Below, one piece after another: positions 9,913 through 30,369 of a stretch of 64,000 nucleotides of DNA; the stretch's first letter is position 1; each line of letters starts with the position of its first letter. The notes beneath the pieces were generated by a model. It was not told the DNA's origin. It searched no databases and saw nothing but the letters and a program-made list of their open reading frames with translations. The stretch is from an uncultured Gammaproteobacteria bacterium (lineage in GTDB: Bacteria; Patescibacteriota; Patescibacteriia; UBA11705; JABHMO01): positions 2,873 through 66,872 of the forward strand of contig CAZMEQ010000004.1 of assembly GCA_964565345.1 (NCBI GenBank). The letters are read 5' to 3'. The position numbers were made by a program, and so were the translations under genes.

Positions 9913-10488
9913 ATGCGACCCAAAAACATTCTGATAACTGGTATTGGACTAAGCGGCAAGAGTACCTTGCGCCGCCAACTCGTGGACTTTCTGACAAATC
10001 TGGGGGTCAATTTCGTACAGCATGACGCTGATGGTTTCGCGGAAGTGCGCGACATCCGAGATGCGCGCAATGTCCTGTCGGCCGATGAGATCCAGCTTGC
10101 ACTGACACGACGCGAGACAGTGGTCCTGGTCGAAGATGTTCACGGCGCTGAGCTCGAGGGAAACTTGCGGCCTTTGGTGGCCTACGACCTGGTCTTGTAC
10201 GTTGAGCCTACGCGCTGGGCGTACTTCTTCTTCTGGCTGAGTCGAGCTTGGCAGTGGTTCCGGCGTGGACACTATGCGTGGGATCGTGAGGCCGGCTGGT
10301 CTGGCTCGGGTAAGCCATACCAACTCCGAAACCTGCTTCACATCGGTTATCACATGATTCGAGCGCTCTGGCATCGCAAACGCTGGGTGGCCCAGGATCA
10401 CTGGGTCATGAGGAATTCTGGCTGTATGGTCTGGGTTCTGCGTTCCTACTGGACGCGGCGCGGCCCTGGGTTTCTGTTCAAGTTCTAG
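9913..10488 (+). CDS. P-loop NTPase/kinase-like protein, GC-rich (likely foreign)
   Basis: GIGLSGKST is a Walker A motif. A GAAGGAGG ribosome-binding site precedes the ATG at 9913. The track start at 9889 lies upstream of that site. About 60% GC. The C-terminus is Trp/Arg-rich. Confidence 0.45.
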   Translation: MRPKNILITGIGLSGKSTLRRQLVDFLTNLGVNFVQHDADGFAEVRDIRDARNVLSADEIQLALTRRETVVLVEDVHGAELEGNLRPLVAYDLVLYVEPTRWAYFFFWLSRAWQWFRRGHYAWDREAGWSGSGKPYQLRNLLHIGYHMIRALWHRKRWVAQDHWVMRNSGCMVWVLRSYWTRRGPGFLFKF

Positions 10489-10630
10489 CTCCCAATGTCG
10501 TTGGCTGCACCGGCTGACGACTTTTTTATTTAAAATTAGAATAAAAGCCGTTTTCGATGTAACACTTTTAGTCCTTGGACCGTCTTATATAATAGAGTCC
10601 CACGTACTATTAAGGTACGGGGCAATTAAT

Positions 10631-10768
10631 ATGAATAAAAATTGGCACAATTATCCTTGTGTTGAAAAGACTGACTTACGTTCAGGCTGGATTTTTGGTA
10701 TGTACCAAAAAGCTAGCGGAGCGAAAGCTGATCTGTTTGTACGGATAATTGTGTTTAATAAGAATTAA
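10631..10768 (+). CDS. small hypothetical ORF (45 aa)
   Basis: ATG start with a 10-bp perfect hairpin terminator downstream (10790-10825). Weak evidence. Confidence 0.2.
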   Translation: MNKNWHNYPCVEKTDLRSGWIFGMYQKASGAKADLFVRIIVFNKN

Positions 10769-10866
10769 AAAAATTTCTTCTATACAATTACGCGTCCAGT
10801 CAGATCGGCTGGACGCGTTTGTTTGCTTCTGGCTGTGATCATTACAACCCACACGGGAGGGTTCCC

Positions 10867-12054
10867 ATGTCCGAAAAGATCGAGCGGAACTTTGTCATCT
10901 TCAAGATTCTCTTTCAGTTTTTCTTCGCCTTGTCATTTCCCATGTACGTGCTCTTTCTGAAAGACGGTGGAATGAACCCCAATCAGATTGGACTCGTCAA
11001 CACCCTGTTCATGGTTGCGGTCTGCTTGTTTGAAGTGCCCACTGGCATTGTTGGTGATCGGTTTGGTCGTAAGAAATCGATCATCATCGGTTTGGGTGTA
11101 AGTAGCTTGGGCTTTATGTGGTACTTTGCCAGTACCAGTTTCTGGATGTACGTTGCGGCGGAGGTCATCCTGGCTCTGGGCATGAGTTTCATATCGGGTT
11201 CGCTCCAAGCTTGGCTTAAGGACACGCTGCACTACCATAACGGCAAGAAAAGTTTCGGCGTTGTTTGGAGTAATGGCTCTAAGTTCGCTCACTTGGCTGG
11301 AATCTTGGGTGGGTCAACCGGAGCCCTACTGGGAAGTTACTGCATCTCTTGTCCATGGCTCTTGGCCAGTTTGGGGACACTGTTCCTGACTGTTCTCTCG
11401 TGCTTTATCGTGGACGAAAGCTACTTTAAGCACACAAACCTGAGCTGGAAAGAGGGCGCCAAGGAGTTTTCTCGTCTTTTTAAAACAGCGACTTCTTTGG
11501 CTTACCGGCAAAAGAAGATTCGTTATTTCTTTGCCATCACTTGCCTGACAACCTTTGCATTGCAACCGCTAAACCAACAGTGGTCCTTGTTTTTTGAGGC
11601 AACCTTTGACCTGAAGTCCATCATGTTCGTATGGATGGGGATGTCTTTGGCTCTGTTTGTCGGTTCGCACACAGCGAGTCGACTCTTGAAAAAAGAAAAG
11701 AATCAGGAATTGGCCTACCTCCTGATGGCCTTGCTCATCAAGAGCAGTTGCATTATTGTCATGTCGCAACAAACAAGCTCAATTCTTGTTCTGTTGCTGT
11801 TCTTGGGACACGAGCTACCTCGTGGCTCTTGGGAGCCCCTAGCTGAATCCTACTTGCAGAAACAAGTTCCGGATGAAGTCCGTGCCACCATGGGGTCTCT
11901 CTCGTCGCTGGTGAATAAGCTCGGGGCTGGCGCGGGATGGCTCCTGGCTGGGTTTATGCTAGAACACTGGCACATCCTCGATTGTTGGCTTGTTGGTGGG
12001 CTCGCACTCTTGCTCACCATCCCATTCTTCTACCTGCTGCTCCGAGAAAGTTAA
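10867..12054 (+). CDS. MFS transporter, GC-rich
   Basis: Multiple predicted transmembrane helices. Contains the MFS-like GDRFGRKK motif. A GGGAGG ribosome-binding site precedes the ATG at 10867. The track start at 10819 is upstream of that site. Confidence 0.6.
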   Translation: MSEKIERNFVIFKILFQFFFALSFPMYVLFLKDGGMNPNQIGLVNTLFMVAVCLFEVPTGIVGDRFGRKKSIIIGLGVSSLGFMWYFASTSFWMYVAAEVILALGMSFISGSLQAWLKDTLHYHNGKKSFGVVWSNGSKFAHLAGILGGSTGALLGSYCISCPWLLASLGTLFLTVLSCFIVDESYFKHTNLSWKEGAKEFSRLFKTATSLAYRQKKIRYFFAITCLTTFALQPLNQQWSLFFEATFDLKSIMFVWMGMSLALFVGSHTASRLLKKEKNQELAYLLMALLIKSSCIIVMSQQTSSILVLLLFLGHELPRGSWEPLAESYLQKQVPDEVRATMGSLSSLVNKLGAGAGWLLAGFMLEHWHILDCWLVGGLALLLTIPFFYLLLRES

Positions 12055-12092: not shown

Positions 12093-13004
12093 AATAGATT
12101 CAATTTTTTCTTTTTTCTTTTCCAGTAAAGAAAGCAAATAATTTAGCGAATGGAGAGAATAATTTTTGGCTTCTTTATCTTTGTTATAAAGAAATTTAAT
12201 ATAAAAGGATAGGGCTCTTTCAATGACAGCAAACTTAATAGCAGGATATAGATATTTTTTTTCTTGTTGACTTAATTTTCTTTCTTTTTGGTAGTTATCA
12301 AGAATGCGTTTTAATTTTTTATTGCACCAGGCTTTCCAGTTGGTATGAAAACACCAGCCGCGGAGGACCTGCCCTAAATCATAGATGAGTGGGGCATAAT
12401 AACTGCGTTCAAAATCAATCAGCCCAGAAATTTTTCCGTCTAGCCACAGGACATGTCGCTTGCCTAAGTCTTCATGAATCATCCCTCTGGGCAAGTTGTT
12501 GGGAATTATAATAGTACTAAGCTCTTTTTGTATTTGTTGTAAAATTTTATCTTTGGGAAATTTAGTTTTCAGTTCAGTTAAATGTCTCTCAGTTGTTTTT
12601 AGATCCCACTTATGGAGAATTTTATTTTTTGTTTGATAGTTTTGGATACTTTTATGGAATCGTCCAAAGACCATGGAGAATTCGGCTACTTCAAATGGAT
12701 TGGGAGTGGCTTTAGATCGTCCGTCGATATGTTTTTTTATTAAAATGTTAGAGGCGCCAAACTTCAGTATAGAAATAATTGGTGCAACTGGAATTTTCTT
12801 TTTGATCAAGAATTCGGATAATTCTTTTTGGGCAGCTAATTCTTTGAGCGATCTAAAACGAGGCCCTTTGTTGTAAAGAGTAAAAACATAGTTATCTCTA
12901 TTTGTTTTAATTAAATAATTACGATCAGAATTTTTTTCGAGTAAGCTAAAAGAAAGAAGAGTACCTAATTTTTGTAATGATGTGATTTTGGGTATGTTTA
13001 TCAT
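12078..13004 (-). CDS. phosphotransferase-family kinase (APH/choline-kinase-like)
   Basis: HEDLGKRHVLW (catalytic-loop HxDxxxxN-like) and IDFERSYYAPLIYDLG (DFG-like) motifs. Confidence 0.6.
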   Translation of the reverse strand: MINIPKITSLQKLGTLLSFSLLEKNSDRNYLIKTNRDNYVFTLYNKGPRFRSLKELAAQKELSEFLIKKKIPVAPIISILKFGASNILIKKHIDGRSKATPNPFEVAEFSMVFGRFHKSIQNYQTKNKILHKWDLKTTERHLTELKTKFPKDKILQQIQKELSTIIIPNNLPRGMIHEDLGKRHVLWLDGKISGLIDFERSYYAPLIYDLGQVLRGWCFHTNWKAWCNKKLKRILDNYQKERKLSQQEKKYLYPAIKFAVIERALSFYIKFLYNKDKEAKNYSLHSLNYLLSLLEKKKEKIESIINAA

Positions 13005-13105
13005 GATTTAAGTGTAGCAAATTTATATTAGTAGAGAAGGGGGCATGCAAAAAATTTATAAAAAAATATCGACGCCTCAGCTGTGGCCGAAGCGTCGAAG
13101 TTGGG

Positions 13106-14209
13106 TCAGGCAATTCTTGCCTCCGTCGGGGTGAGATTGAGTTCGCCCTGTCCCAGGGGGGTGAGGTGTCGCGTGAGATTCGTTGCGACCAGGCGTCTCA
13201 AGTCACTCAGTGTCAGGTTCAACCGCGTGCCGGTAGGTTCGCGGAAGTAGATCAAGAAGCCTTTCTGGTGGTAGAACACGTCGGCTTGGGGCTCTGCTTG
13301 GCGCAGGGCCTGGGCCAACTTTTCCATCCCGGCCACGTACTTGGTTTTACGCGACAGGATGGCCACCGTGAAGCGACCACGGAGTTCCGGCCTTCCGGTA
13401 TTTTCCGCCACCATGATGTCAACGTCCGAGTGACGTCGGTCGTTCATGATGTCGCGCAGGTCGCTCGGAGCGAAGGGGTGCGCAGGCACAAAGGCGATCC
13501 GCAATCCACCAACTTCCTGCACCTCGATCGTGGGCTCCACCGCTTGTGCGAAGGTGGTTTCACGTTCGTAGTAATTACGCGCTTCCTGGGCGTAGCACTG
13601 GAGTGCGTTGACCAGGCAAACCATGTGCAACAAGTCCGGAGTCCCACTCGGCTTGTTCTTGACCAAGGTCATGAACCAGGTCGGGCCTGGCAAGTTGGGT
13701 ACGAATCGGCCTACCGGGCCGTGCTCTTCGTAGAGCATCTCGTTCAAGGTGCCGATGGTTTCGTACACCTCTTCTTCCAGGTCACCGACTTCGTGGCCGG
13801 AGTCGATCCGGTTGACGAACTCGACGAGTCGCTTCAAGTACTTGGGCGGGTTAAATCCTTCGCCCACGAACAGGAGCTCAAAAATGATCTCCGAGGCACT
13901 GTGGAATTCGCAGTCCACATAGTGGTGGTCGAAGATCAGGTTGTCGAGGTCCAGCCGGCCACCGGTGTCGATGTGCACGACCACGTCGCGTCCGTGGAAC
14001 GATTTGTACGAGTCGGGGTCCAAGAGCTGCCCCGGAGGGACGAAATGCCAGTGGATCCGGTTTTCATACAAGTTGAACCCGGATTTCTTGAGGATCATGA
14101 GGGCGCCGACGGCACCGTCCTGGTCCGGGTCCTGGTGTGTCACGATGTGCAAGTTGTGGGCATCGCGCAGACGGCGAATCACCGCCCTTTTCTGTTCGGG
14201 GGAAAACAT
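13106..14209 (-). CDS. DHH-family phosphoesterase, GC-rich
   Basis: Motifs HQDPDQDGAVGA, VVHIDTGG and IFDHHY match the DHH family. The overlapping plus-strand ORF 13166..14215 is an antisense artefact. Confidence 0.6.
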   Translation of the reverse strand: MFSPEQKRAVIRRLRDAHNLHIVTHQDPDQDGAVGALMILKKSGFNLYENRIHWHFVPPGQLLDPDSYKSFHGRDVVVHIDTGGRLDLDNLIFDHHYVDCEFHSASEIIFELLFVGEGFNPPKYLKRLVEFVNRIDSGHEVGDLEEEVYETIGTLNEMLYEEHGPVGRFVPNLPGPTWFMTLVKNKPSGTPDLLHMVCLVNALQCYAQEARNYYERETTFAQAVEPTIEVQEVGGLRIAFVPAHPFAPSDLRDIMNDRRHSDVDIMVAENTGRPELRGRFTVAILSRKTKYVAGMEKLAQALRQAEPQADVFYHQKGFLIYFREPTGTRLNLTLSDLRRLVATNLTRHLTPLGQGELNLTPTEARIA

Positions 14210-16249: not shown

Positions 16250-17260
16250 ATGATTTTACGTGAAGCAACAATTAATGATAAAGAAAACTGGGACCGTTTT
16301 GTCGAAACAACCGAAGGCGGTTCCTTTGTTCAATCTTGGGCTTGGAGCGAGTTCATGTCTACGCAAAAAGAAAAGGTCTGGCGTTATTTGATTGAATCAG
16401 ATGACAAGATTGTGGCCGTTATGTTTTTATTTCTTTCAAGACTCAAATTGAAGCAAACTTTATTATATTCACCTAAGGGTCCAATTATTAGCACAGAAAT
16501 TGAGCGCGCCAAAGCGTGGGATTTATTCATGACCACAGTGGACCAAATTGCCGACGAAGAAAAAGCCTTAACTTTCCAATTAGACCCAGAAACTAGCGAT
16601 GTAACTTGGTGTCAATTGTTCGATCAGGCTGGATTGGTTAAGTCTAAGATTGATATACAACCTCGCCACACTTTAATTTTGGATATTCGTAAGTCAGAGG
16701 AAGATTTATTAAAACAAATGCACCAAAAAACGCGTTATAATATAAATTTGGCACATAAAAAAATGATTAAGGTGCGAGTTGACAATAAAGACGATAAAAA
16801 TTTAATTGAACTTTTAAAGAAAACAGAAGAGCGTCAGCGCATTCAACTTTTTGGTGCAGACTATTTTAAAAAATTATTACAATGCCCTTTAGTTAAATTG
16901 TATTTGGCTGACTATGCTGGTAAAACGATCGCGGCTAATGTTATGATTTTTTGGAATCATACTGCTACTTATTTGTTTGGAGCTTCGGATTATGAAGCTC
17001 GTGCTCTTATGGCGCCCTATCTTTTGCAGTGGCAGGCTATGAAGGATGCAAAAGATTCTGGTATGTGGTTTTATGATTTTTGGGGCGCAGCACCAGAAAA
17101 CGCCAAGGGACAAGAAATGAGTTGGGCTGGATTTACTAGATTCAAAAAAGGTTTTTCGCCAAATGCTGAAATTACAGAATTTTTAGGCGCCTACGAAAAA
17201 AATTATCAACCAGTGAAATTGGGCTTGTATCGATTTTTGCGCAAAATATATAAACGTTAA
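16250..17260 (+). CDS. FemAB-family peptidoglycan peptide-bridge aminoacyltransferase
   Basis: 336 aa. The FemABX-type GNAT-fold region GASDYEARALMAPYLLQWQAMKDAKDSGMWFYDFWG is present. Confidence 0.65.
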   Translation: MILREATINDKENWDRFVETTEGGSFVQSWAWSEFMSTQKEKVWRYLIESDDKIVAVMFLFLSRLKLKQTLLYSPKGPIISTEIERAKAWDLFMTTVDQIADEEKALTFQLDPETSDVTWCQLFDQAGLVKSKIDIQPRHTLILDIRKSEEDLLKQMHQKTRYNINLAHKKMIKVRVDNKDDKNLIELLKKTEERQRIQLFGADYFKKLLQCPLVKLYLADYAGKTIAANVMIFWNHTATYLFGASDYEARALMAPYLLQWQAMKDAKDSGMWFYDFWGAAPENAKGQEMSWAGFTRFKKGFSPNAEITEFLGAYEKNYQPVKLGLYRFLRKIYKR

Positions 17261-17439
17261 ATATGAAAAACTATTCGCGTCGAACTAATAAAAAAGTGAC
17301 GCGTTTTCGAACAGCTAGTGTCTTCAAGGCTTCGCATAGTGAAGAGAATAAACGGGTCAACGCGCATCTTAAAACAGCTCCCAGGTAGGGAGCTGTTGTC
17401 ATTTGATTTGCGAATCGACAACGGCGATGAAGCAAACCG

Positions 17440-17769
17440 CTAGCCAAATTCATAAATATCATGTTCATACCAATCGTATGAAAGATCTTCCCATTTGGGG
17501 TCGGTAGCTTCAATTAAGTTTATTTTCTTTTTTCTTGAACCAGCCTTGATTTGTTTCTCTCTGGAATTTGCAGCATCAATACGTTGGTATATTTCGAAAT
17601 AGACTAACTTATCAAGGTTGTACCGTGATGAGAAAGACTTTGTGAAATATTTGTTTTTATGTTGCCAGACCCTTCTATAGAGATCAATTGTTACTCCGGT
17701 ACATAACGCCTGGTTTTTCTTGTTAGTCATAATGTAGACAGCGCAATTGGATTTATCCATATCTAACAT
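17440..17769 (-). CDS. GIY-YIG nuclease family protein (second copy)
   Basis: VYIMTNKKNQALCTGVTIDLYRRVWQHK matches the GIY-YIG core. Inverted repeats flank it at 17408-17444 and 17810-17854. Confidence 0.7.
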   Translation of the reverse strand: MLDMDKSNCAVYIMTNKKNQALCTGVTIDLYRRVWQHKNKYFTKSFSSRYNLDKLVYFEIYQRIDAANSREKQIKAGSRKKKINLIEATDPKWEDLSYDWYEHDIYEFG

Positions 17770-17809
17770 TAAAGAACAACGGTAAGATTTTGGTAATTTT
17801 AGGTGTGGG

Positions 17810-17932
17810 GCTAGCGGTTTGCGTCGTCTCCGACAGAGCGGATCATCGCAAAACGCTATGGGGCACCTAATAATTAGAGGGAGCTAGCGGTTTGCGTCGT
17901 TGCTGCGCTTCTCGCAAAACGCCAGGGTTCAC
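17810..17932. repeat. tandem ~50-nt direct repeats (GCTAGCGGTTTGCGTCGT...CGCAAAACGC...CACCT) x2; first copy is inverted repeat partner of 17408-17444
   Basis: Seen directly. The TTAGGTGTGGGG motif at 17799-17810 is shared with the flanks of the first GIY-YIG gene. Confidence 0.6.
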
Positions 17933-17974
17933 CTACCTGCGACATTCTAATTTATCGGGATCTATAATTAAGGG

Positions 17975-19411
17975 ATGAAATTAACCCGGTCGCAAAAGTT
18001 TTTTTACTTGTGCTTATGTTTTCTGATTGGGATAGTTCTCGGCGAACTTCCTGTTTCTCTTTCTTTTATTTTTTTATTATGTTTTTTTGTTTTTTTGTTC
18101 CTATTTTTAATTAAATTATCAAAAATTTATTATCTATTATTGATTTCCCTGGTCGTAGGAATATTTTGGCGCAACTCGTTCAACCCCAGTATAGATGATG
18201 ACCATATCAGTTATTATAATAATAAGTTCATGACCTTTTTGGGTGTTGTTATTAATGAACCTGATGTTAGAATAGATAGTCAAAAACTGACTATAGATGT
18301 TACTGACTATAAGGGAAAAGTTCTTTTAAAGACTTTGCAATATCCGGAATATAGCTATGGGGACCAGCTTTCAATAAAATGTAAGTTGCATCCACCGGAA
18401 CCAATCGAAGATTTCCGCTATGACAAATTTTTAGCCCGCGAGGGTATTTATTCAGTTTGTTATAATCCTCAAATAAAAAAGGTTAGTGGGAATAATGGCA
18501 ATTTTATTTATGCTTGGATTTTAAAATTTAAAAAAGGGGTTGAACAAATCATCAATAAAACCATTTCAGAACCACAAGCCGCCTTGCTCGGTGGTATTTT
18601 GTTAGGTTCGCGTAGGGGCCTTCCCACGGAGTTAATGGATCAGTTCAATCGCGTAGGCATTACGCATATTATCGCCATCTCTGGCTATAATATTACCATT
18701 ATCGTTTCGGTGCTAATGACATTGGCCAAGTTCTTGTATATAAATCGAAAAAAAGTTTTGTGGTTCATATTCCCGAGTTTAATTATTTTTGTTATTTTAA
18801 CAGGGCTGAGTGCTTCGGTAGTGCGCGCCACTATTATGGGGTTGCTGGTTGTCGTCGCTGGCCAGGTGGGGAGAAAATCAAATCCGAAAAATATTTTGAT
18901 AGCCGCAGCTGTTGTGATGTCTGTGTGCAATCCGTTTGTGATCTTGTGGGATTCTGGTTTCCAACTGTCATTCTTGGCTACATGTGGGTTGATGTTTTTG
19001 TCTGAGAAATTAAAAAAGTATTTCGCCCGAGTACCGGAAATTTTTGGGTTGCAAGAGAATTTGGTTAGTACCTTTTCCGCCATTATTATGACTTTACCTT
19101 TAATACTTTTTAATTTTAAAAGACTTTCACTTATTGCGCCGATTGCAAATCTACTAGTTTTGCCGACCATTCCGCTGGCTATGTTATTAGGTTTTGTTCA
19201 AATCATAGTCGGTTCTTTTTCTGTTGCCTTGGGACAAGTAGTTGGTTGGTCTAGTTGGTTAATTTTGAGTTATGTGGTTAAGGTGACAGAAATTTTAGCT
19301 TTACTATGGTGGTCGGCCGTTGATTTGTCTGTGGGTTGGGGAGGTCTAATTCTGGGATTTTTAACTCTAGTAGTCATTATTAAAAAGAAGAGACGTATAG
19401 TCTATTCGTAA
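17975..19411 (+). CDS. comEC: ComEC/Rec2 competence membrane channel (DUF4131 + competence domain, no MBL domain)
   Basis: Polytopic membrane protein. The competence-domain core ITHIIAISGYNI...SASVVRATIMG is present. Confidence 0.75.
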   Translation: MKLTRSQKFFYLCLCFLIGIVLGELPVSLSFIFLLCFFVFLFLFLIKLSKIYYLLLISLVVGIFWRNSFNPSIDDDHISYYNNKFMTFLGVVINEPDVRIDSQKLTIDVTDYKGKVLLKTLQYPEYSYGDQLSIKCKLHPPEPIEDFRYDKFLAREGIYSVCYNPQIKKVSGNNGNFIYAWILKFKKGVEQIINKTISEPQAALLGGILLGSRRGLPTELMDQFNRVGITHIIAISGYNITIIVSVLMTLAKFLYINRKKVLWFIFPSLIIFVILTGLSASVVRATIMGLLVVVAGQVGRKSNPKNILIAAAVVMSVCNPFVILWDSGFQLSFLATCGLMFLSEKLKKYFARVPEIFGLQENLVSTFSAIIMTLPLILFNFKRLSLIAPIANLLVLPTIPLAMLLGFVQIIVGSFSVALGQVVGWSSWLILSYVVKVTEILALLWWSAVDLSVGWGGLILGFLTLVVIIKKKRRIVYS

Positions 19412-24269: not shown

Positions 24270-26306
24270 ATGTGGCCATTTGCTTTCATTATTTTTTTTA
24301 GCGCCTTCTTGCTTTTTCAAGTCCAACCTTTAATAAGTAAGTTTATTTTACCTTGGTTTGGCGGGTCGGCTTCGGTGTGGTTGGTAGCCATGTTGTTTTT
24401 TCAATTGCTGTTATTGTTAGGGTACTTGTATTCTTTTATCTTGAATCATTTTAAAGTAAAAACGCAAAAATACGTTCATCTTTTTTTGATTTTTGTAACC
24501 TTGCTAACTTTGCCCATTATTCCAGAGGCCGAGTGGAAACCAATAGATTCGTCTTGGCCGGCTATAAAAATTATTGTTATTTTGTTTTTAACAGTGGGGC
24601 TTCCATATTTTGTCCTTTCTACCACCGGGCCGTTACTGCAAGCTTGGTATGTTCGTAAAAACCCGGCTAAAAATCCATATATACTTTACGCACTATCTAA
24701 TGCCGGTTCACTGATTGGGTTAATTTCTTTTCCTTTTTTATTTGAGCCGTTCTTAGATAGTTTTACTCAGGCGTGGTTTTGGTCGGGCGGTTTTCTTTTA
24801 TTTGGACTAGCAGTTTTTGTCTTGGTTTTTAAAAAGCTTAAAGCCTTACCAGAAAAATTATTTATTGAGACTGCTAAGGAAAATATTAAACCTTTAAGAT
24901 TAGCGCTTTGGATTATTTTTCCAGCCTTAGCCTCAGCTATTTTTCTGGCAGTTACAAATCATATTTGTCTTGATGTAGCAACAATACCGTTTTTGTGGAT
25001 TTTGCCGTTTTCTCTGTATCTGCTCACTTTTATTATTACTTTCGCTGATCCATATTTTTACAAACGCGGGTTTTATATTGCCGCTTCATTGTTTTGTTTG
25101 GCCGTGGTTCCGTTTTTAGTTTTTTATCGAGAGATAGTTTCTTTTGATATTAGCTTACAAGTCGTAAGTTATCTGCTAGTTTTGTTTGTGACCTGTATGA
25201 CCTGTCATGGGGAGCTATACAGATTAAAACCTAAAGCAGAGTCGCTTACATATTATTATTTAATGATTGCTATCGGTGGCGCTTTGGGCGGTTTGTTTGT
25301 CTCTGTCATTGCGCCACTTATTTTTACTGCTTATTGGGAGTTGCCTTTTTGCATCTTAGCATTATTGGTGGTGATTTGTTTAAAGCATTTTGGTAGTAAT
25401 GGTTTTAAAACAGAAGTTAGTTACAAAAATCGTAAAGTTATTATTATTTGTTTTATTCTTTTGTGTGTGTTTTTTATCGGATACATAATTTATGCGCAAA
25501 AAAGTGGAGCCAAGCGAACCATCGCTGCTCAAAGAAATTTTTATGGTACATTAAGAGTAGAAGATATTGATTCAAGAGAGGTTGGTAAACAAGAAAGATA
25601 TTTGTTGTACGGCTCAACTGTCCATGGTAATAGTTTGCGTGAACAAGGTAAGGATATCCCTTATTTGGGTTATTATGCGGAGGGGAGTGGAGTGGGGGTG
25701 CTTATGGAAGAAATAATTAATACTCCCAATCGTGAGGTTGCGTTAATCGGTTTGGGGACTGGGACTTTGGCGTATTATGGTAATGAAGGCGATAATTTTA
25801 CTTTTTATGAAATTAACCCAGCGGTTTTACCTTATGCCGAGCAATATTTTTCGTACTTAAAAGAGAGTCGGGCTAAAATCAATCATGTTTTAGGTGATGC
25901 CAGACTTTCTTTAGAAAAAGAACCTAACAACAAATTTGATAGTTTAGTTTTAGATGCTTTTAGCAGTGATTCAATCCCAGTTCACTTGTTGACCAAGGAA
26001 GCTTTTGAAATGTATTTAAAGAAGATGAAAGAAAAATCAGTCATGGCGGTTCATATCTCGAATAGACATTTAGACTTAACTCCAGTTTTACGGGCATTAG
26101 CAGATTATTTTGATTTAGATATGGCGATTATCTCTGCCCCCAAAGATGAAGCGAAAAAAAGACATAATTCCACGTGGATTCTTTTGGCAAAAGATAAAAG
26201 CATTTTACACAGCAGGGAATTAGATGCACTGTATACGAAAGAAGCGGTTAAGAGTATCAATATTTGGACTGATCATTATAGTAATTTATTCAAAATTTTA
26301 AAATAA
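24270..26306 (+). CDS. polytopic membrane protein fused to spermidine-synthase-like methyltransferase-fold domain
   Basis: About 12 transmembrane segments. The C-terminal LIGLGTGTLA...VLDAFSSD region has a PABS-like fold. Confidence 0.5.
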   Translation: MWPFAFIIFFSAFLLFQVQPLISKFILPWFGGSASVWLVAMLFFQLLLLLGYLYSFILNHFKVKTQKYVHLFLIFVTLLTLPIIPEAEWKPIDSSWPAIKIIVILFLTVGLPYFVLSTTGPLLQAWYVRKNPAKNPYILYALSNAGSLIGLISFPFLFEPFLDSFTQAWFWSGGFLLFGLAVFVLVFKKLKALPEKLFIETAKENIKPLRLALWIIFPALASAIFLAVTNHICLDVATIPFLWILPFSLYLLTFIITFADPYFYKRGFYIAASLFCLAVVPFLVFYREIVSFDISLQVVSYLLVLFVTCMTCHGELYRLKPKAESLTYYYLMIAIGGALGGLFVSVIAPLIFTAYWELPFCILALLVVICLKHFGSNGFKTEVSYKNRKVIIICFILLCVFFIGYIIYAQKSGAKRTIAAQRNFYGTLRVEDIDSREVGKQERYLLYGSTVHGNSLREQGKDIPYLGYYAEGSGVGVLMEEIINTPNREVALIGLGTGTLAYYGNEGDNFTFYEINPAVLPYAEQYFSYLKESRAKINHVLGDARLSLEKEPNNKFDSLVLDAFSSDSIPVHLLTKEAFEMYLKKMKEKSVMAVHISNRHLDLTPVLRALADYFDLDMAIISAPKDEAKKRHNSTWILLAKDKSILHSRELDALYTKEAVKSINIWTDHYSNLFKILK

Positions 26307-26453
26307 AATCGATAAATAAGAACGTCCCCCTGAGCCTTGAGCTTAGGGGGATTTTTGACAATTCCTAGGGTAATGATACGGTTAAAGTACGGGTGTTAAC
26401 TTGGCAATACGTGTCTTAGCCTCCCGTCCGTAAGTCGGAGTAAGGAGGCCCTC

Positions 26454-27503
26454 ATGAAGAGTCCTGTCCAGAGTCTTACTGTCAACACCTACGGCACGCG
26501 CGGCAGTCAGCCGATCTGTAATCCGGAATCGGTTGTCACCGGCGGCAACACCACCTGTCTGCGTATCGAGTCGCTCTGCCTGCCTAGTGGTATGGCTCTC
26601 GTCATCGACGCAGGGACCGGCTTTCCTCCACTCGCACGGGTTTTGGCAGCGGAAGGAATCACTGGCAGCTCCAAACATGGCGATGGTCACGAACACGACC
26701 AAGTCGTGATCTGCTTCACGCACTACCACCGTGATCACACCATCGGTCTGACCACGGCCATTCCGGTAATTTTCAACAAGAAGTTGCCGGTGCGGTTCAT
26801 TGGTCCGTTGGATCAGGGCGGTGGGCCGAAGGAGATGATGCAGAGACTGTTCTGCCCACCGGACTTCCCAGCTGGGTACAAGAAGGTCGCTTCTCACCTG
26901 GAATACACGCCGCTGGACGACCCATCGACCTACGTGATCATGTTTCACCCCAAGGGGGGGCTCAAGGTACTGGGGCTCGATGAGTTCGAGCGGCTGGTCC
27001 GCAAGGGCGGAGAACGCATGCCCTTCGGAGCCAAGTCCTACTACCCGCTGGGAGAATGCTTGGTCGTGCGCATGCTCAAGACCGAGCATCCCCAGACCAC
27101 GGTGTCATATCGATTCGACGAGATGCCGACCGGGAAGAGTTTCGTGTTCATGACCGACAACGAGTCCATGGACGGTATCCCACAAGCGTACTTGGCACAC
27201 GTCAGGGACGCGGACCTCCTCATCCTGGATGTTCAGTACGACGAGGCAACTTATTACGGCTTCACGGCGGGCTTCGGTCACGCCTGGGCCGGGTTCGCGG
27301 TTCGCCTAGCCAATGCTACCCATGTCAAGCGTCTTGGTACCACCCACCACGATCCGGATTCCACGGATCAGAAGGTTGATGCGATTGTCGATGAAATCCG
27401 TCATCTGGCAGCTGCAAGGCTGGCCGAAGCGGGCGATTCGACCCTGCTACTGCAACCCAAGAACGTCTTCGCTTGCCGTGATTACGGTAGGACCGAAGTC
27501 TAG
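26454..27503 (+). CDS. MBL-fold metallo-hydrolase, GC-rich
   Basis: FTHYHRDHTIGL (HxHxDH) motif. An AGGAGG ribosome-binding site is present. A terminator sits at 27576-27610. The antisense ORF 26382..27089 is rejected. Confidence 0.6.
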   Translation: MKSPVQSLTVNTYGTRGSQPICNPESVVTGGNTTCLRIESLCLPSGMALVIDAGTGFPPLARVLAAEGITGSSKHGDGHEHDQVVICFTHYHRDHTIGLTTAIPVIFNKKLPVRFIGPLDQGGGPKEMMQRLFCPPDFPAGYKKVASHLEYTPLDDPSTYVIMFHPKGGLKVLGLDEFERLVRKGGERMPFGAKSYYPLGECLVVRMLKTEHPQTTVSYRFDEMPTGKSFVFMTDNESMDGIPQAYLAHVRDADLLILDVQYDEATYYGFTAGFGHAWAGFAVRLANATHVKRLGTTHHDPDSTDQKVDAIVDEIRHLAAARLAEAGDSTLLLQPKNVFACRDYGRTEV

Positions 27504-27627
27504 TTCTCGTGCTACTAAACCCATTACGCGCAGGGCGGATTAAGGCGGACACCACCCGCCAGTGTTAACACCCCAGGGGTAGCTCCACGGAGCTACCCCT
27601 AAATTTTTTATAATTATCGTTGTTCCA

Positions 27628-27660
27628 TTTACAAAATCGCATATTTTGCTATACTTAAGC
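27628..27660 (+). promoter_or_regulatory. promoter TTTACA-16-TATACT upstream of ndk
   Basis: Seen directly. Confidence 0.4.
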
Positions 27661-27681
27661 CAAAATAATTAAGATTAATTT

Positions 27682-28269
27682 ATGGAAAGATCATTTGTTA
27701 TTATCAAGCCAGATGGAGTCCAACGCGGACTGATGGGTGAAATTATTAAACGTTTTGAACGCACAGGTTTAAAGTTTGTGGCCTTTAAATTTTTAGTCCC
27801 CGAGGCTGATACTTGTTGGAAACATTATAATAAAGATGAAAAATGGTTTTTAGAAAAAGGGACTCGAATTTTATCGGAAAGACAATTAGCTGGTTTACCA
27901 GTTGATAAGGAAGCAATTGAATACGGTAAAGACATTGTTAATCAACTAGTAAAGTTCATGACTAGCGGTCCAGTTTTAGCGATGATTTTAGAAGGCAATC
28001 AAGCCGTTGGTATTGTCAAAAAGCTAGTTGGTGGAACCGAGCCATTAACTTCTGACGTGGGAACGATTCGTGGAGACTTTACTCTTGATTCTTATAGTCT
28101 TTCTGGAACTAGTGGTCGCGCAGTGCGTAATTTAATTCATTGTTCAGATAAACCAGAAGAAGCGGAACGCGAAATTGGACTTTGGTTTAAACCAGAAGAA
28201 ATTGTAAAGTACAATGTGATTCAAGAAAAAGTTTTATATGATGTTAATTTAGACGGAATTTTAGAATAA
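27682..28269 (+). CDS. ndk: nucleoside-diphosphate kinase (long form)
   Basis: FVIIKPDGVQRGLMGEIIKRFE plus the active-site NLIHCSD. Terminator at 28277-28320. Confidence 0.8.
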   Translation: MERSFVIIKPDGVQRGLMGEIIKRFERTGLKFVAFKFLVPEADTCWKHYNKDEKWFLEKGTRILSERQLAGLPVDKEAIEYGKDIVNQLVKFMTSGPVLAMILEGNQAVGIVKKLVGGTEPLTSDVGTIRGDFTLDSYSLSGTSGRAVRNLIHCSDKPEEAEREIGLWFKPEEIVKYNVIQEKVLYDVNLDGILE

Positions 28270-28394
28270 ATTTTAAAAACCTGTCGCACTTCGGCTAGCT
28301 CAGTGTGACAGGTTTTTTTATTGAACATTTTTTGATTTTATTGTAAGCTCTGCTCAGAGTTTCAGGTGGTCATAATCGACAAAGGAGGCCGTTC

Positions 28395-29399
28395 ATGTTA
28401 GATCGCGTGGGTATAGTTGCCAACACTAAGGCGCGTTCAGGTTATCAGGGTTTCGCTCCGATCATGGACGAAATCCACGCGCGTGGCTGGCACGAAACGC
28501 GCGTATTCTACTGCTTGCCAGACTCGGTTTCCAAGCTCTCGCATGATCTTATCGAGCTCGTCGAGGGACACAAGGTTCAGTTGCTCTTTGTTTACGGTGG
28601 AGATGGCACCTTGCACAAGGTGATCGATATCCTCATCTATGAACAGGAGCGTGGACAGATCAAGACTATTCCGCCCATTGTCACCTTGGGTGGAGGGACG
28701 CAGAAGGCGCTGTTCCAGTGGTTGGGCTGGGGCAAGGGGGTCTTCTTGCACGAGCCACCGCTGAAGATCTTCCGTCGTGTCATGGCTGCTTCGTTCGAAC
28801 ACCTTCCGCGACGTAAGATGCGCCCGCTCGCCATCACTTTCCACAATTCTCGCAAAGGGAGAGTGGAAACCCATTACGGGTTCATTTTCATCATGGGTGC
28901 CATGGCGCGCGTCATCCAGCTATACGACGCTGGGGGCAAGTCGCCACTGACAGGTCTCAAGCACATCGGGTTTGGCATTATTGGCTCATTACTGCGAGTG
29001 CCAAGATCTCACGCTGCGTTGACAGATCAGTTTCAGGCAAATCAGTGGGCTGATGATGTCCTCTTGCCACGTCGTGACCCTCTGGCCGTAGTTTGCAGCG
29101 TGACGCACAGTTTGCTTTTCGGCATCGAACCTTTCCGGGGATCAGCCGAGAGCAATCAGTTCTACGCTGCTAGCTACGCTGTGCCAGCTTCGATTCTTTC
29201 CGCTCTCGTACCGGTAGAGTGGCGGGGGACTGTCGTTCCTCCGGGTGATCGATTCTTTAACCAGCCGGTCTTCTCCTTTAGTGTCCAACCGGACCATGAA
29301 GGATCCTTCTTCGTTGATGGGGATTTCTTCTTCAACACGCCGGGCGAGAAGTTGACCGTTAGTCTGGGCCCTGAGCTCGAGCTAGTTTCTCACTTCTAG
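28395..29399 (+). CDS. diacylglycerol/lipid kinase catalytic-domain protein (YegS/LCB5-like), GC-rich
   Basis: VYGGDGTLHKVI matches the DAGK_cat motif. An AAAGGAGG ribosome-binding site is present. Terminator at 29407-29441. Confidence 0.6.
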   Translation: MLDRVGIVANTKARSGYQGFAPIMDEIHARGWHETRVFYCLPDSVSKLSHDLIELVEGHKVQLLFVYGGDGTLHKVIDILIYEQERGQIKTIPPIVTLGGGTQKALFQWLGWGKGVFLHEPPLKIFRRVMAASFEHLPRRKMRPLAITFHNSRKGRVETHYGFIFIMGAMARVIQLYDAGGKSPLTGLKHIGFGIIGSLLRVPRSHAALTDQFQANQWADDVLLPRRDPLAVVCSVTHSLLFGIEPFRGSAESNQFYAASYAVPASILSALVPVEWRGTVVPPGDRFFNQPVFSFSVQPDHEGSFFVDGDFFFNTPGEKLTVSLGPELELVSHF

Positions 29400-29733
29400 T
29401 CATGACTCCTCACTGCGCACCGCGGTGAGGAGATTTTTTTATTAAATTTTTTTTGATATAATTAATATACCAGAGATGCTGGTGCAATTTCGGGTCAACA
29501 TTATTTCTTGGGAATTCTATATTTCATTAGTCCGAGGATTAGTGGTGCGATATCCCACGTGGCGTTCAGCCGGAATAATGACCAGCCTCTGGTTTTTGAT
29601 TTGCGAGCAGGTTCTAAAAGACATACGTTTACCCCGTACCCAGTAATCTGTGGTGCGGGGAAGCAATCAGTAAAACCAGTTTCATAATATAAAAAAATAG
29701 GCCCCCACCGCGTGTGTGCGGTAGGGGCAGGGG

Positions 29734-30369
29734 CTAGGCGCCGAGCGTCATGTTGTGGCGTCGATGCGCGTTCTGGAGGCCGGGCGTCGGTATCCGTGGT
29801 TCTGGACGGCGGGCGGCCTCACGGTCGTCGGGGGCGTTGTTGCCGCGGATCTTGTCCATCCACTCCTGCAGAGTGCAGGGCAAGATGGCGACCTGCTTGG
29901 GCCACTCGACCGGCTCCTTGTCCGGGGCGGGGTTCAGCGGGGTGTCCCGTTGTTCTTCGAGGACAGTCTCCTGGCCGATGAGGGGCAGGTACTGATCCAC
30001 GCGAACGTAGCGGACGACCGGCGATTGGTAGTACCAGCCGATGTCGCTCTGCGGGTCGTACTTGACGACCGGGACTTCGTGTTGGGTCAGCTTGAGGTAC
30101 ATGGTCAGGTAGGGGGGGATCGGATCTCCGTAGTCCACGAACTCGAAGTCCAACAGTTTGTTATTGGCGTCGTAGACGGCCAAGGCGATCGGCGGAGTTG
30201 CAGGCAGGACGTTGATGTCGCCCGCAGTGAACTGCAGCGTGATGTCCGGGGGGAGCTGGGTCTGCGTTGTCTCGGCCTTGGTACTTGTGGCCTGGAAAGC
30301 GAACAGGGCAGCAAAGGACCAGGGGAAGCCGAGCACGAAGATGCCGAGCAAACGAATGAACCGTTTCAT
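29734..30369 (-). CDS. secreted hypothetical protein, GC-rich
   Basis: Start chosen at MKRFIRLLGIFVLG (signal peptide) with a GGAGG ribosome-binding site. The antisense ORF 29755..30414 is rejected. Confidence 0.45.
   Translation of the reverse strand: MKRFIRLLGIFVLGFPWSFAALFAFQATSTKAETTQTQLPPDITLQFTAGDINVLPATPPIALAVYDANNKLLDFEFVDYGDPIPPYLTMYLKLTQHEVPVVKYDPQSDIGWYYQSPVVRYVRVDQYLPLIGQETVLEEQRDTPLNPAPDKEPVEWPKQVAILPCTLQEWMDKIRGNNAPDDREAARRPEPRIPTPGLQNAHRRHNMTLGA

Follow-up and report, generated by a model that had tools for sequence, protein, structure and literature searches.

Introduction

SsnA of Neisseria meningitidis (NMV_0044/NMB0047) belongs to the CDD family cd10448 and is made up of 94 aa with a single GIY-YIG domain (Chenal et al., Nat Commun 2025, PMC11893778). 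Its target is the hairpin repeat NTS (CGTCATTCCCGCGMAVGCGGGAATCYRG), which it binds solely as single-stranded DNA (ssDNA), on one strand only, and it cleaves a few nucleotides upstream of the repeat; the repeats around ssnA are the ssDNA recognition hairpins of the nuclease (PMC11893778). Here, we describe a related gene, GIY-YIG #2, in a stretch of 64,000 nucleotides from contig CAZMEQ010000004.1, the whole of which we call the window. Together with its flanking repeats, the gene takes up positions 17401-17925, and sequence comparison indicates that this unit is very probably a diverged, vertically inherited SRM-ssn-SRM module, SRMs being the repeats that flank homologs of ssnA. The original prediction had read the unit as one of a family of miniature elements bounded by terminal inverted repeats (TIRs) that are not among the classically described insertion sequence (IS) families. 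The layout NTS/SRM-ssnA-NTS/SRM has already been published (Chenal et al. 2025, PMC11893778), and the unit is not an undescribed IS family.

The determinants of the Neisseria system are known in some detail. The substitutions Y6A, Y17A, and E64A abolish cleavage, with binding being retained (PMC11893778). In the repeat, binding depends most on the C directly 3' of the palindrome, and cleavage on the three nucleotides 5' of it (PMC11893778). The GTC requirement for cleavage was measured for the Neisseria enzyme only, and the cut position varies among Ssn homologs (PMC11893778). SsnA does not bind RNA in vitro (PMC11893778). Across phyla, at least one SRM is found beside 71% of the homologs, and 42% have SRMs on both sides (PMC11893778). 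The authors likened NTS-ssnA-NTS to an IS and to the IS200/IS605-type transposases that are associated with repetitive extragenic palindromes (REPs) (PMC11893778).

The gene and its flanking hairpins

A hairpin motif of 45-60 nt occurs in three copies around GIY-YIG #2, one downstream over the stop codon and two in tandem upstream. The downstream (left) copy L (17401..17444, plus strand) has the structure GATTTGCGAA-ATCG..CGAT-GAAGCAAA-CCGCTAGC, and its 3' tail contains the final Gly codon of the gene and the TAG stop (17440-17442; CTA on the plus strand). The upstream (right) copy R1 (17810..17858, minus strand) is forward on the gene strand and has the structure GCGTTTTGCGATGA-TCCG..CGGA-GACGACGCAAA-CCGCTAGC. 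The second upstream copy R2 (17883..17925, minus strand) is a tandem duplicate of the right-hand unit with a 73-nt period. Around R1, an extended hairpin without assigned strand (17799..17871) is closed by TTAGGTG(TGGGG) at 17799-17810 and CACCTAAT at 17864-17871.

The repeat search found inverted arms of 35 nt at 77% and of 21 nt at 86%, and right-hand direct copies at 73-nt spacing. The bracketing of the gene by inverted copies of one motif, with the right end tandemly duplicated, is thus confirmed as the original prediction had it. The strings that it quoted for the left end (17408-17444, including the stop codon) and the right end (17810-17854) lie at these positions; the second right-hand copy is present as a direct copy, with its start at 17883 instead of 17884. 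Exactly three copies of the 13-mer GCTAGCGGTTTGC are present in the 64 kb, all of them at this locus, namely at 17432-17444 on the minus strand (L) and at 17810-17822 (R1) and 17883-17895 (R2) on the plus strand. A lineage model of the repeat (model R2) gave 65.9 bits for L, 64.3 bits for hairpin R1 (17802-17865, minus strand), and 63.1 bits for hairpin R2 (E ~1e-16), these three being its training sequences; the next-best match in the window reached only 11.9 bits.

As ssDNA, hairpin R1 folds with -12.2 kcal/mol (z -3.3), and L folds with an outer stem TTTGC/GCAAA. This stem can form as ssDNA in all five copies of the lineage, which are those of the window and of the orthologous locus L002 (see below). 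The lineage consensus is nnG(A/T)TTTGCGA-[variable]-GA(C/T)GA(C/A)GCAAACCGCTAGC.

The encoded protein

The ssnA-like gene (17440..17760, minus strand) codes for a single-domain GIY-YIG protein of 106 aa if the start is taken at the ATG shared with the ortholog. From another ATG farther upstream, at 17769, the protein would have 109 aa (open reading frame (ORF) 17440-17769, minus strand). We infer the 106-aa start because in L002 the upstream ATG runs directly into a stop. The database version of the protein (P0001) has 96 aa from an internal Met, whereby the first catalytic Tyr is lost. Exact-protein look-ups with the 109-aa ORF and with the other GIY-YIG protein of the window, GIY-YIG #1, gave no match, because the databases call other start codons.

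GIY-YIG was the only Pfam domain matched (residues 9-84, E 6.9e-12), and NCBIfam holds no specific family for the protein. Among the solved structures, there was no Ssn structure, and the best match, UPF0213 BH0048 (1zg2), had an E-value of just 0.27.

A tblastn search of 7.3 Gb with the window protein found one place in each of two N. gonorrhoeae chromosomes from the PLSDB collection (E 2e-15 and 4e-16). This place codes for a 94-aa protein with Tyr, Tyr, and Glu at positions 6, 17, and 64. Eight repeats surround it, of which the SRM pattern matches 8 and the stricter NTS pattern 7. We take the N. gonorrhoeae locus to be ssnA because the Y6/Y17/E64 numbering and the eight repeats of the published type fit. 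The window protein is 40% identical to this N. gonorrhoeae SsnA over 91 aa (pairwise E 9e-26). The E-values are well below the E < 1e-10 that PMC11893778 used in tblastn/blastp for homology to Neisseria SsnA, and the 106 aa of the window protein with a single GIY-YIG domain lie within the ~94-110 aa expected of an Ssn protein.

Conservation in a related genome

GIY-YIG #2 is located between a FemAB-family gene (16250-17260, plus strand) and comEC (17975-19411, plus strand). A protein with 81% identity (P0002) is present in the database and is encoded on contig L002, which comes from another sample. The gene order of L002 is that of the window (U32 peptidase, RuvA, FemAB, GIY-YIG gene, comEC), and the amino acid identities between the two are 83% for U32, 80% for RuvA, 91% for FemAB, and 82% for SsnA. 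In L002, one copy of the motif stands on either side of the GIY-YIG gene. The right-hand unit, single in L002, is tandemly duplicated in the window as hairpins R1 and R2, and the inner loop of hairpin R2 matches the L002 copy. The extended R1 hairpin has a degenerate form in L002 (TTAGGAGTTGGGG).

Between the window gene and its L002 ortholog, dN/dS is 0.076 at a dS of ~1.1. Despite that divergence, the repeat cores TTTGCGA and GAYGACGCAAACCGCTAGCC are identical in both, and the inner stems of L differ, with both still pairing. Since the repeats are kept at the orthologous locus of another species in another sample, they are not a product of chance. The shared synteny and the low dN/dS indicate that the gene has been in place since the window/L002 split and under purifying selection. 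The module thus appears to be inherited vertically. The FemAB protein is closest to proteins of Candidatus Falkowbacteria and other Patescibacteria, and the genome is a Falkowbacteria-like one of the candidate phyla radiation (CPR). The window has a G+C content of 39.6%.

Two further observations concern these relatives. The strain variant L001, an independent assembly, is identical to the window over 1.7 kb save for 26 differences clustered in ~150 bp (17176-17322). The patch covers the 3' end of FemAB and the start of a small ORF and ends ~80 nt from the left SRM; it is a short recombination tract. Contig L002 carries a second Ssn-like GIY-YIG gene at 1085-1432 (minus strand), with 41% identity to N. 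gonorrhoeae SsnA (E 7e-15). It is flanked by an inverted hairpin pair of its own (1075-1130 and 1440-1500), with the sequences GTCATGCTGAGGTGCG..AGCCTCGAAGCATGAC and GTCACGGTTCGAGGCT..GCGCACCTCACCGTGAC, and the outer stems of this SRM-like pair differ through compensatory changes. Hence, a genome may hold several Ssn paralogs, each with its own motif.

Repeats at homologous loci

In total, 2268 homologs were found. A contig scan with a profile of 36 homologs provided 80 metagenome loci, whose proteins are 49-64% identical to the window protein. For the 64 loci with enough flank, we aligned the 200 nt before the gene with the reverse-complemented region behind it; 16 loci gave an inverted flank alignment above the 95th percentile of a mismatched-locus null, 8 of them above the 99th. 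The motif common to the arms across loci is (C)GTCATTGCGAG-[variable stem-loop]-CGAAGCAATC(Y). The string GTC[AG]TTGCGA is present in 63/80 homolog loci, with 188 matches in 190 kb versus <1 expected. Its copies are biased in orientation: upstream, 65 are forward and 31 reverse; downstream, 59 are reverse and 30 forward. At 30/78 loci, a forward copy within 250 nt upstream is combined with a reverse copy within 250 nt downstream. The inner stem covaries, a sign of selection on the hairpin, with 55 double-change cells versus 21.8 in shuffles and a score that was exceeded in 0/500 shuffles. The inverted-flank loci above the null and the motif in 63/80 loci show that the layout is family-wide, and in this the expectation of a family of similarly built loci was borne out.

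The window repeats and the metagenome SRMs have in common TTGCGA...GA(C/T)GA(C/A)GCAA plus the 3' C, and this C after the palindrome is present in 5/5 copies of the lineage. By eye, the form of hairpin R1 is almost that of canonical metagenome SRMs, an example being GTCATTGCGAGTATCCGCC..GGCGGAGACGAAGCAATCC. The outermost A-T pair of the canonical repeat is flipped to T-A on both sides in the window lineage.

The canonical repeat GTCATTGCGAGG..GACGAAGCAATC of loci L032-L111 often forms arrays or head-to-head doublets (L053, L082, L108). Its translation gives peptides such as VIARS...DEAIS, and repeat-derived peptides of this kind make up spurious N- or C-terminal extensions of the database proteins P0069, P0077, and P0011.

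Hairpins beside a gene could also act in the transcript, as terminators or attenuators or by pairing of the 5' and 3' untranslated regions to close the mRNA, with the DNA form being idle. The extended hairpin around R1 is very stable as RNA (-31.1 kcal/mol, z -3.4; opposite strand z -4.3), L, at the 3' end of the ORF, could pair with R1 (35 nt, 77%), and a weak Phe_leader-like Rfam match extends over L and the neighboring terminator (E 0.049, below gathering). Against this stand the lack of a T-tract or a terminator-like site and the inability of SsnA to bind RNA in vitro (PMC11893778). Moreover, the small ORF upstream has its real terminator in a separate hairpin (17373-17397), and non-palindromic flanks and an orientation bias that are conserved across phyla fit a protein recognition site. 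At gathering score, Rfam gave no family at the locus and only four tRNAs in the whole window, and raising the limit to E 10 at the locus added nothing but sub-threshold noise; the eleven homolog loci gave nothing. The repeats are thus no curated RNA family, and no match to a COG2827-associated RNA motif appeared in the Rfam searches. We, therefore, consider a role at the RNA level highly improbable.

Comparison with the Ssn system

The unit in the window resembles the Ssn system in its small single-domain GIY-YIG protein homologous to Neisseria SsnA, in the position of the gene between inverted hairpin repeats of 20-50 nt, and in repeats with a palindromic core, directional flanks, and a conserved C 3' of the palindrome. 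Hairpins stand 5' and 3' of the gene as described for ssn loci (L downstream, R1/R2 upstream), and the same is seen at the ortholog and at most homolog loci. It differs in its host, as CPR/Patescibacteria are absent from the main text of PMC11893778, and in the conserved 3' tail CCGCTAGC that is added in the window repeats. These also fail the published pattern, do not have the 5' GTC, and have the outer pair flipped. Besides, there are three copies only, all at the gene, and the second catalytic Tyr is a Cys in the window protein.

Some of these differences, along with the results of the model searches, weigh against an Ssn assignment. The published degenerate SRM pattern, HGTCWYN(0-2)YYVSBRHN(0-5)WNVSBRGN(0-2)RNCYNB, has 0 matches in the window and fits 1/80 homolog loci. 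Because it matches so few of these loci, the Ssn clade of the window must use an SRM variant, in which the CGTCATT...AATC flanks are as in NTS and the stem is different. A family covariance model (model R1), built from 59 metagenome repeats and run unfiltered over the whole window (128 kb search space), had its best match at L (17408-17435, plus strand, 18.2 bits, E 0.048) and its second-best at hairpin R2 (17892-17917, minus strand, E 0.48). Both are oriented as in the family, that is, forward upstream and reversed downstream of the gene; the E-values are modest. The model did not recover hairpin R1, with its longer inner stem, at E < 10. The 5' GTC is found in 0/5 lineage copies versus 80% of the family elements, for which GTC had not been selected. 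No SRM lies away from the gene in the 64 kb, unlike in the expanded genomes of PMC11893778.

The last of these points concerns the active site. The equivalents of Y6 (VYI) and E64 (REKQ) are kept in the window protein, whereas Cys20 (codon TGT, 17701..17703, minus strand; ALCTG aligned to TLYIG of SsnA) stands where the GIY-YIG motif has its second Tyr, which in Neisseria SsnA is the catalytic Tyr17. The Cys codon is also present in L001. In the ortholog and in all 119 other listed homologs, the position is Tyr (114 homologs by pattern match, the 5 remaining unmatched ones read by eye), which makes the Cys unique among 120. The nuclease activity of the window copy is, therefore, doubtful to judge from this residue.

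By analogy with the Neisseria and Wolbachia enzymes, the ssnA-like gene product is predicted to be a site-specific, ssDNA-only nuclease, with its gene flanked by diverged copies of its own recognition hairpin (R1 and R2 forward upstream, L reversed downstream). The protein would bind the folded hairpin only in single-stranded DNA, as it would arise during replication or in incoming transforming or conjugative DNA. Recognition would be of the palindrome together with the adjoining 3' C, and the cut would fall a few nucleotides 5' of the motif. The module would have entered the variable intergenic slot between FemAB and ComEC before the divergence of the window lineage and L002; inheritance would then have been vertical under purifying selection, with no sign of current mobility or repeat expansion. 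Given the published Y17A phenotype and the missing 5' GTC, the window protein may bind its hairpins without cutting them or may cut by altered rules.

It is even conceivable, although rather unlikely in our view, that a unit of Ssn/SRM origin is now nuclease-dead through the Tyr-to-Cys change and persists as a mere binder of ssDNA hairpins or is being lost. This variant is compatible with an origin as SRM-ssn-SRM module and does not compete with it. The Cys that is unique among 120 homologs, at a position where Y17A kills cleavage and keeps binding (PMC11893778), argues for it, as do the loss of the GTC cleavage determinant in all five lineage repeats and the purely local repeat copies. On the other hand, the ORF is intact and has been strongly constrained since the L002 split (dN/dS 0.076), and the Tyr must have been lost recently because the ortholog in L002 keeps it. 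The need for GTC, too, is known from measurements on the Neisseria enzyme alone, and the cut positions of homologs differ (PMC11893778).

Read as a diverged SRM-ssn-SRM module, the locus would extend the pairing of Ssn nuclease and SRM hairpin to a Patescibacteria (CPR) genome. The published SRM pattern misses the repeat GTCATTGCGAG...CGAAGCAATC, which is used by a large clade of Ssn homologs, and its CPR derivative; hence, genome surveys that use this pattern undercount the association. The Tyr-to-Cys change together with the lost GTC determinant would be a natural test of the separation of binding from cutting, and Ssn enzymes are of interest as programmable ssDNA tools.

Mobility of the unit

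The original prediction suggested a family of miniature TIR-bounded elements. Read as a new IS-like family that is autonomous and currently mobile, the ~40-nt repeats would be transposon ends and the GIY-YIG protein a transposase or homing nuclease. The inverted architecture speaks for such an element, and its IS-like look was remarked by the Ssn authors as well (PMC11893778). In addition, the FemAB-ComEC slot has other cargo in relatives, so the module was inserted at some time, and the nearest non-CPR homologs are 60-66% identical and belong to other phyla, which suggests horizontal transfer. Our results, however, are at odds with current mobility. The element is present in one copy, as the 64-kb window has two GIY-YIG genes only, with 33% identity between their proteins. 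The check for a target-site duplication at the edges of the repeats found none. The lineage model detected no further copies, neither in the window nor in the ~59 kb of related loci. In the GTDB representative genomes, the pattern GCTAGCGGTTTGCN{8,38}TCGCAAA had 28 single matches in unrelated taxa, none of them CPR, versus ~34 expected by chance, in a collection that appears to include neither the source genome nor a relative. The position is kept in the relative L002, the divergence equals that of the housekeeping neighbors, and the dN/dS indicates purifying selection. The characterized activity of the family is ssDNA cleavage and not strand transfer (PMC11893778), and the catalytic Tyr is replaced by Cys. 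Taken together, a currently mobile element is very unlikely.

A classical IS or miniature inverted-repeat transposable element (MITE) is similar in being a unit of ~0.5 kb, bounded by inverted repeats, with one nuclease gene and presence or absence among relatives. It differs in that the window unit has no recognized transposase family (its sole ORF is the 106-aa GIY-YIG protein), no target-site duplication, and no multiple copies. Furthermore, the "TIRs" are individually folding hairpins, and their homologs elsewhere occur independently of the gene. Such "TIR cassettes" are, therefore, better annotated as ssn plus SRM than as novel transposons.

A closer parallel is given by the REP-associated tyrosine transposases (RAYTs) and their REP/REPIN repeats, which are related to the Y1 transposases of IS200/IS605. 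There, too, a single-copy gene stands inside inverted hairpins that its product recognizes as ssDNA and has a domesticated, non-mobile look; a Y1_Tnp gene occupies the same FemAB-ComEC slot in the relative L117. The fold and the chemistry are unrelated (GIY-YIG, not HUH/Y1), and the window has no dispersed repeat population. We regard it as unlikely, though worth stating, that the SRM-ssn-SRM unit or, more plausibly, the TIR-bounded GIY-YIG #1 type is or descends from an autonomous mobile element with a small GIY-YIG ssDNA nuclease that recognizes the hairpin ends. Unit #2 would then be a domesticated, possibly binding-only copy next to comEC. If true, this would be a GIY-YIG analogue of the IS200/IS605 and RAYT elements and an IS-like class not yet demonstrated.

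GIY-YIG #1 and its inverted repeat

The motif TTAGGTGTGGGG is found at 17799-17810 and, near GIY-YIG #1, at 2039-2050 (minus strand) and 2067-2078 (plus strand), so that it stands beside both genes as had been noticed before. A shared 12-mer alone is weak evidence, since 7.7% of random window pairs share some 12-mer. The motif gains meaning because the homolog loci of GIY-YIG #1 carry it, and by this distribution it is the conserved inverted repeat of the GIY-YIG #1 family and not of cassette #2. Half-sites of the repeat bracket hairpin R1 at 17799-17871. The grouping of both cassettes into one element family could not be upheld, as the proteins are 33% identical and the cognate repeats differ.

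GIY-YIG #1 (2111-2377, minus strand) is closer to UPF0213 proteins (1zg2, E 7.7e-7) and has 34% identity to N. gonorrhoeae SsnA over 70 residues. Its family features in the window lie at 2037-2080, 2111-2377 (minus strand), and 2417-2466. We found 12 homologs, all 82-87 aa as called in the database. Four homologs of ~60% identity are in unrelated contexts, namely beside a TRCF-like helicase gene (L119), between VTT and DUF5679 genes (L120), before rplJ (L123), and before ruvB (L124). All four have CCCCCACACCTAAT 9-24 nt before the ATG, in L123 with one substitution (CCCCCCCACCTAAT), and ATTAGGTGTGGGGG with the TAG stop inside it. The two strings form a 14-nt inverted pair, located around 1465-1491 and 1757-1770 in these loci. 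Direct repeats of 4-5 nt (TCAA, CTTG, TTGA) are found just outside the pair. In the window, both arms form a perfect gene-less 18-bp hairpin at 2037-2080, which abuts tRNA-Ala and includes its first bases. A tRNA-like origin of R1 had been considered since TTAGGTGT followed by GGGG also precedes tRNA-Ala, and was dropped as the motif is the inverted repeat of family #1.

A further homolog (L127, 51% identity) lies inside a 23S rRNA gene and has a different 17-nt inverted pair (around 1440-1775). This location fits the GIY-YIG ORFs of CPR rRNA insertions, which are not in introns (Tsurumaki et al., J Bacteriol 2024, PMC11270868). These ORFs resemble GIY-YIG #1 as small CPR GIY-YIG genes outside group I/II introns; cassette #2 differs from them in being intergenic and not in an rRNA gene. 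The term "inverted repeat" does not occur in the main text of PMC11270868, and our searches found no description of the family #1 inverted repeats. Of the two cassettes, the GIY-YIG #1 type, with these arms and contexts, has more the look of a mobile TIR-bounded mini-element.

The FemAB-ComEC slot and other window features

In this CPR group, the slot between FemAB and ComEC (17261-17975 of the window) is a hotspot of variable content: ssnA plus SRMs in the window, ssnA plus a G+C-rich 118-aa ORF in L002, two unannotated ORFs of 155 and 223 aa in L113-L115, a sulfatase gene in L116, and a Y1 (IS200-type) transposase gene in L117 and L118. A functional link between ssn and comEC was rejected, as none of the 80 homolog loci encodes a ComEC. 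Their proximity here is probably a by-product of the variable slot.

Directly after FemAB, a 41-aa basic ORF (MKNYSRRTNKKVTRFRTASVFKASHSEENKRVNAHLKTAPR) is located at 17263-17388 (plus strand). It is conserved in L002, where most of the early differences are synonymous third-position changes, and it ends in a perfect 10-bp hairpin (17373-17397). This ORF is probably a real small gene that gene callers have overlooked.

Elsewhere in the window, the 2.3 kb at 2600-4860 have a G+C content of 0.48-0.56 versus 0.40 overall, contain no long ORF, and match nothing in Rfam at E up to 1. Three copies are present of a ~70-nt module (~3363-3440, 3920-3995, and 4255-4326), in which a GC hairpin GCGCGAC..GTCGCGC is followed by CTCTAAG(G/T)AGTTGAG..CGAC..TTAGAGA. 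The stretch may represent a foreign insert or an uncharacterized structured RNA. Further patches of high G+C content are found at ~10000-12000, 13000-14000, and 26000-30000.

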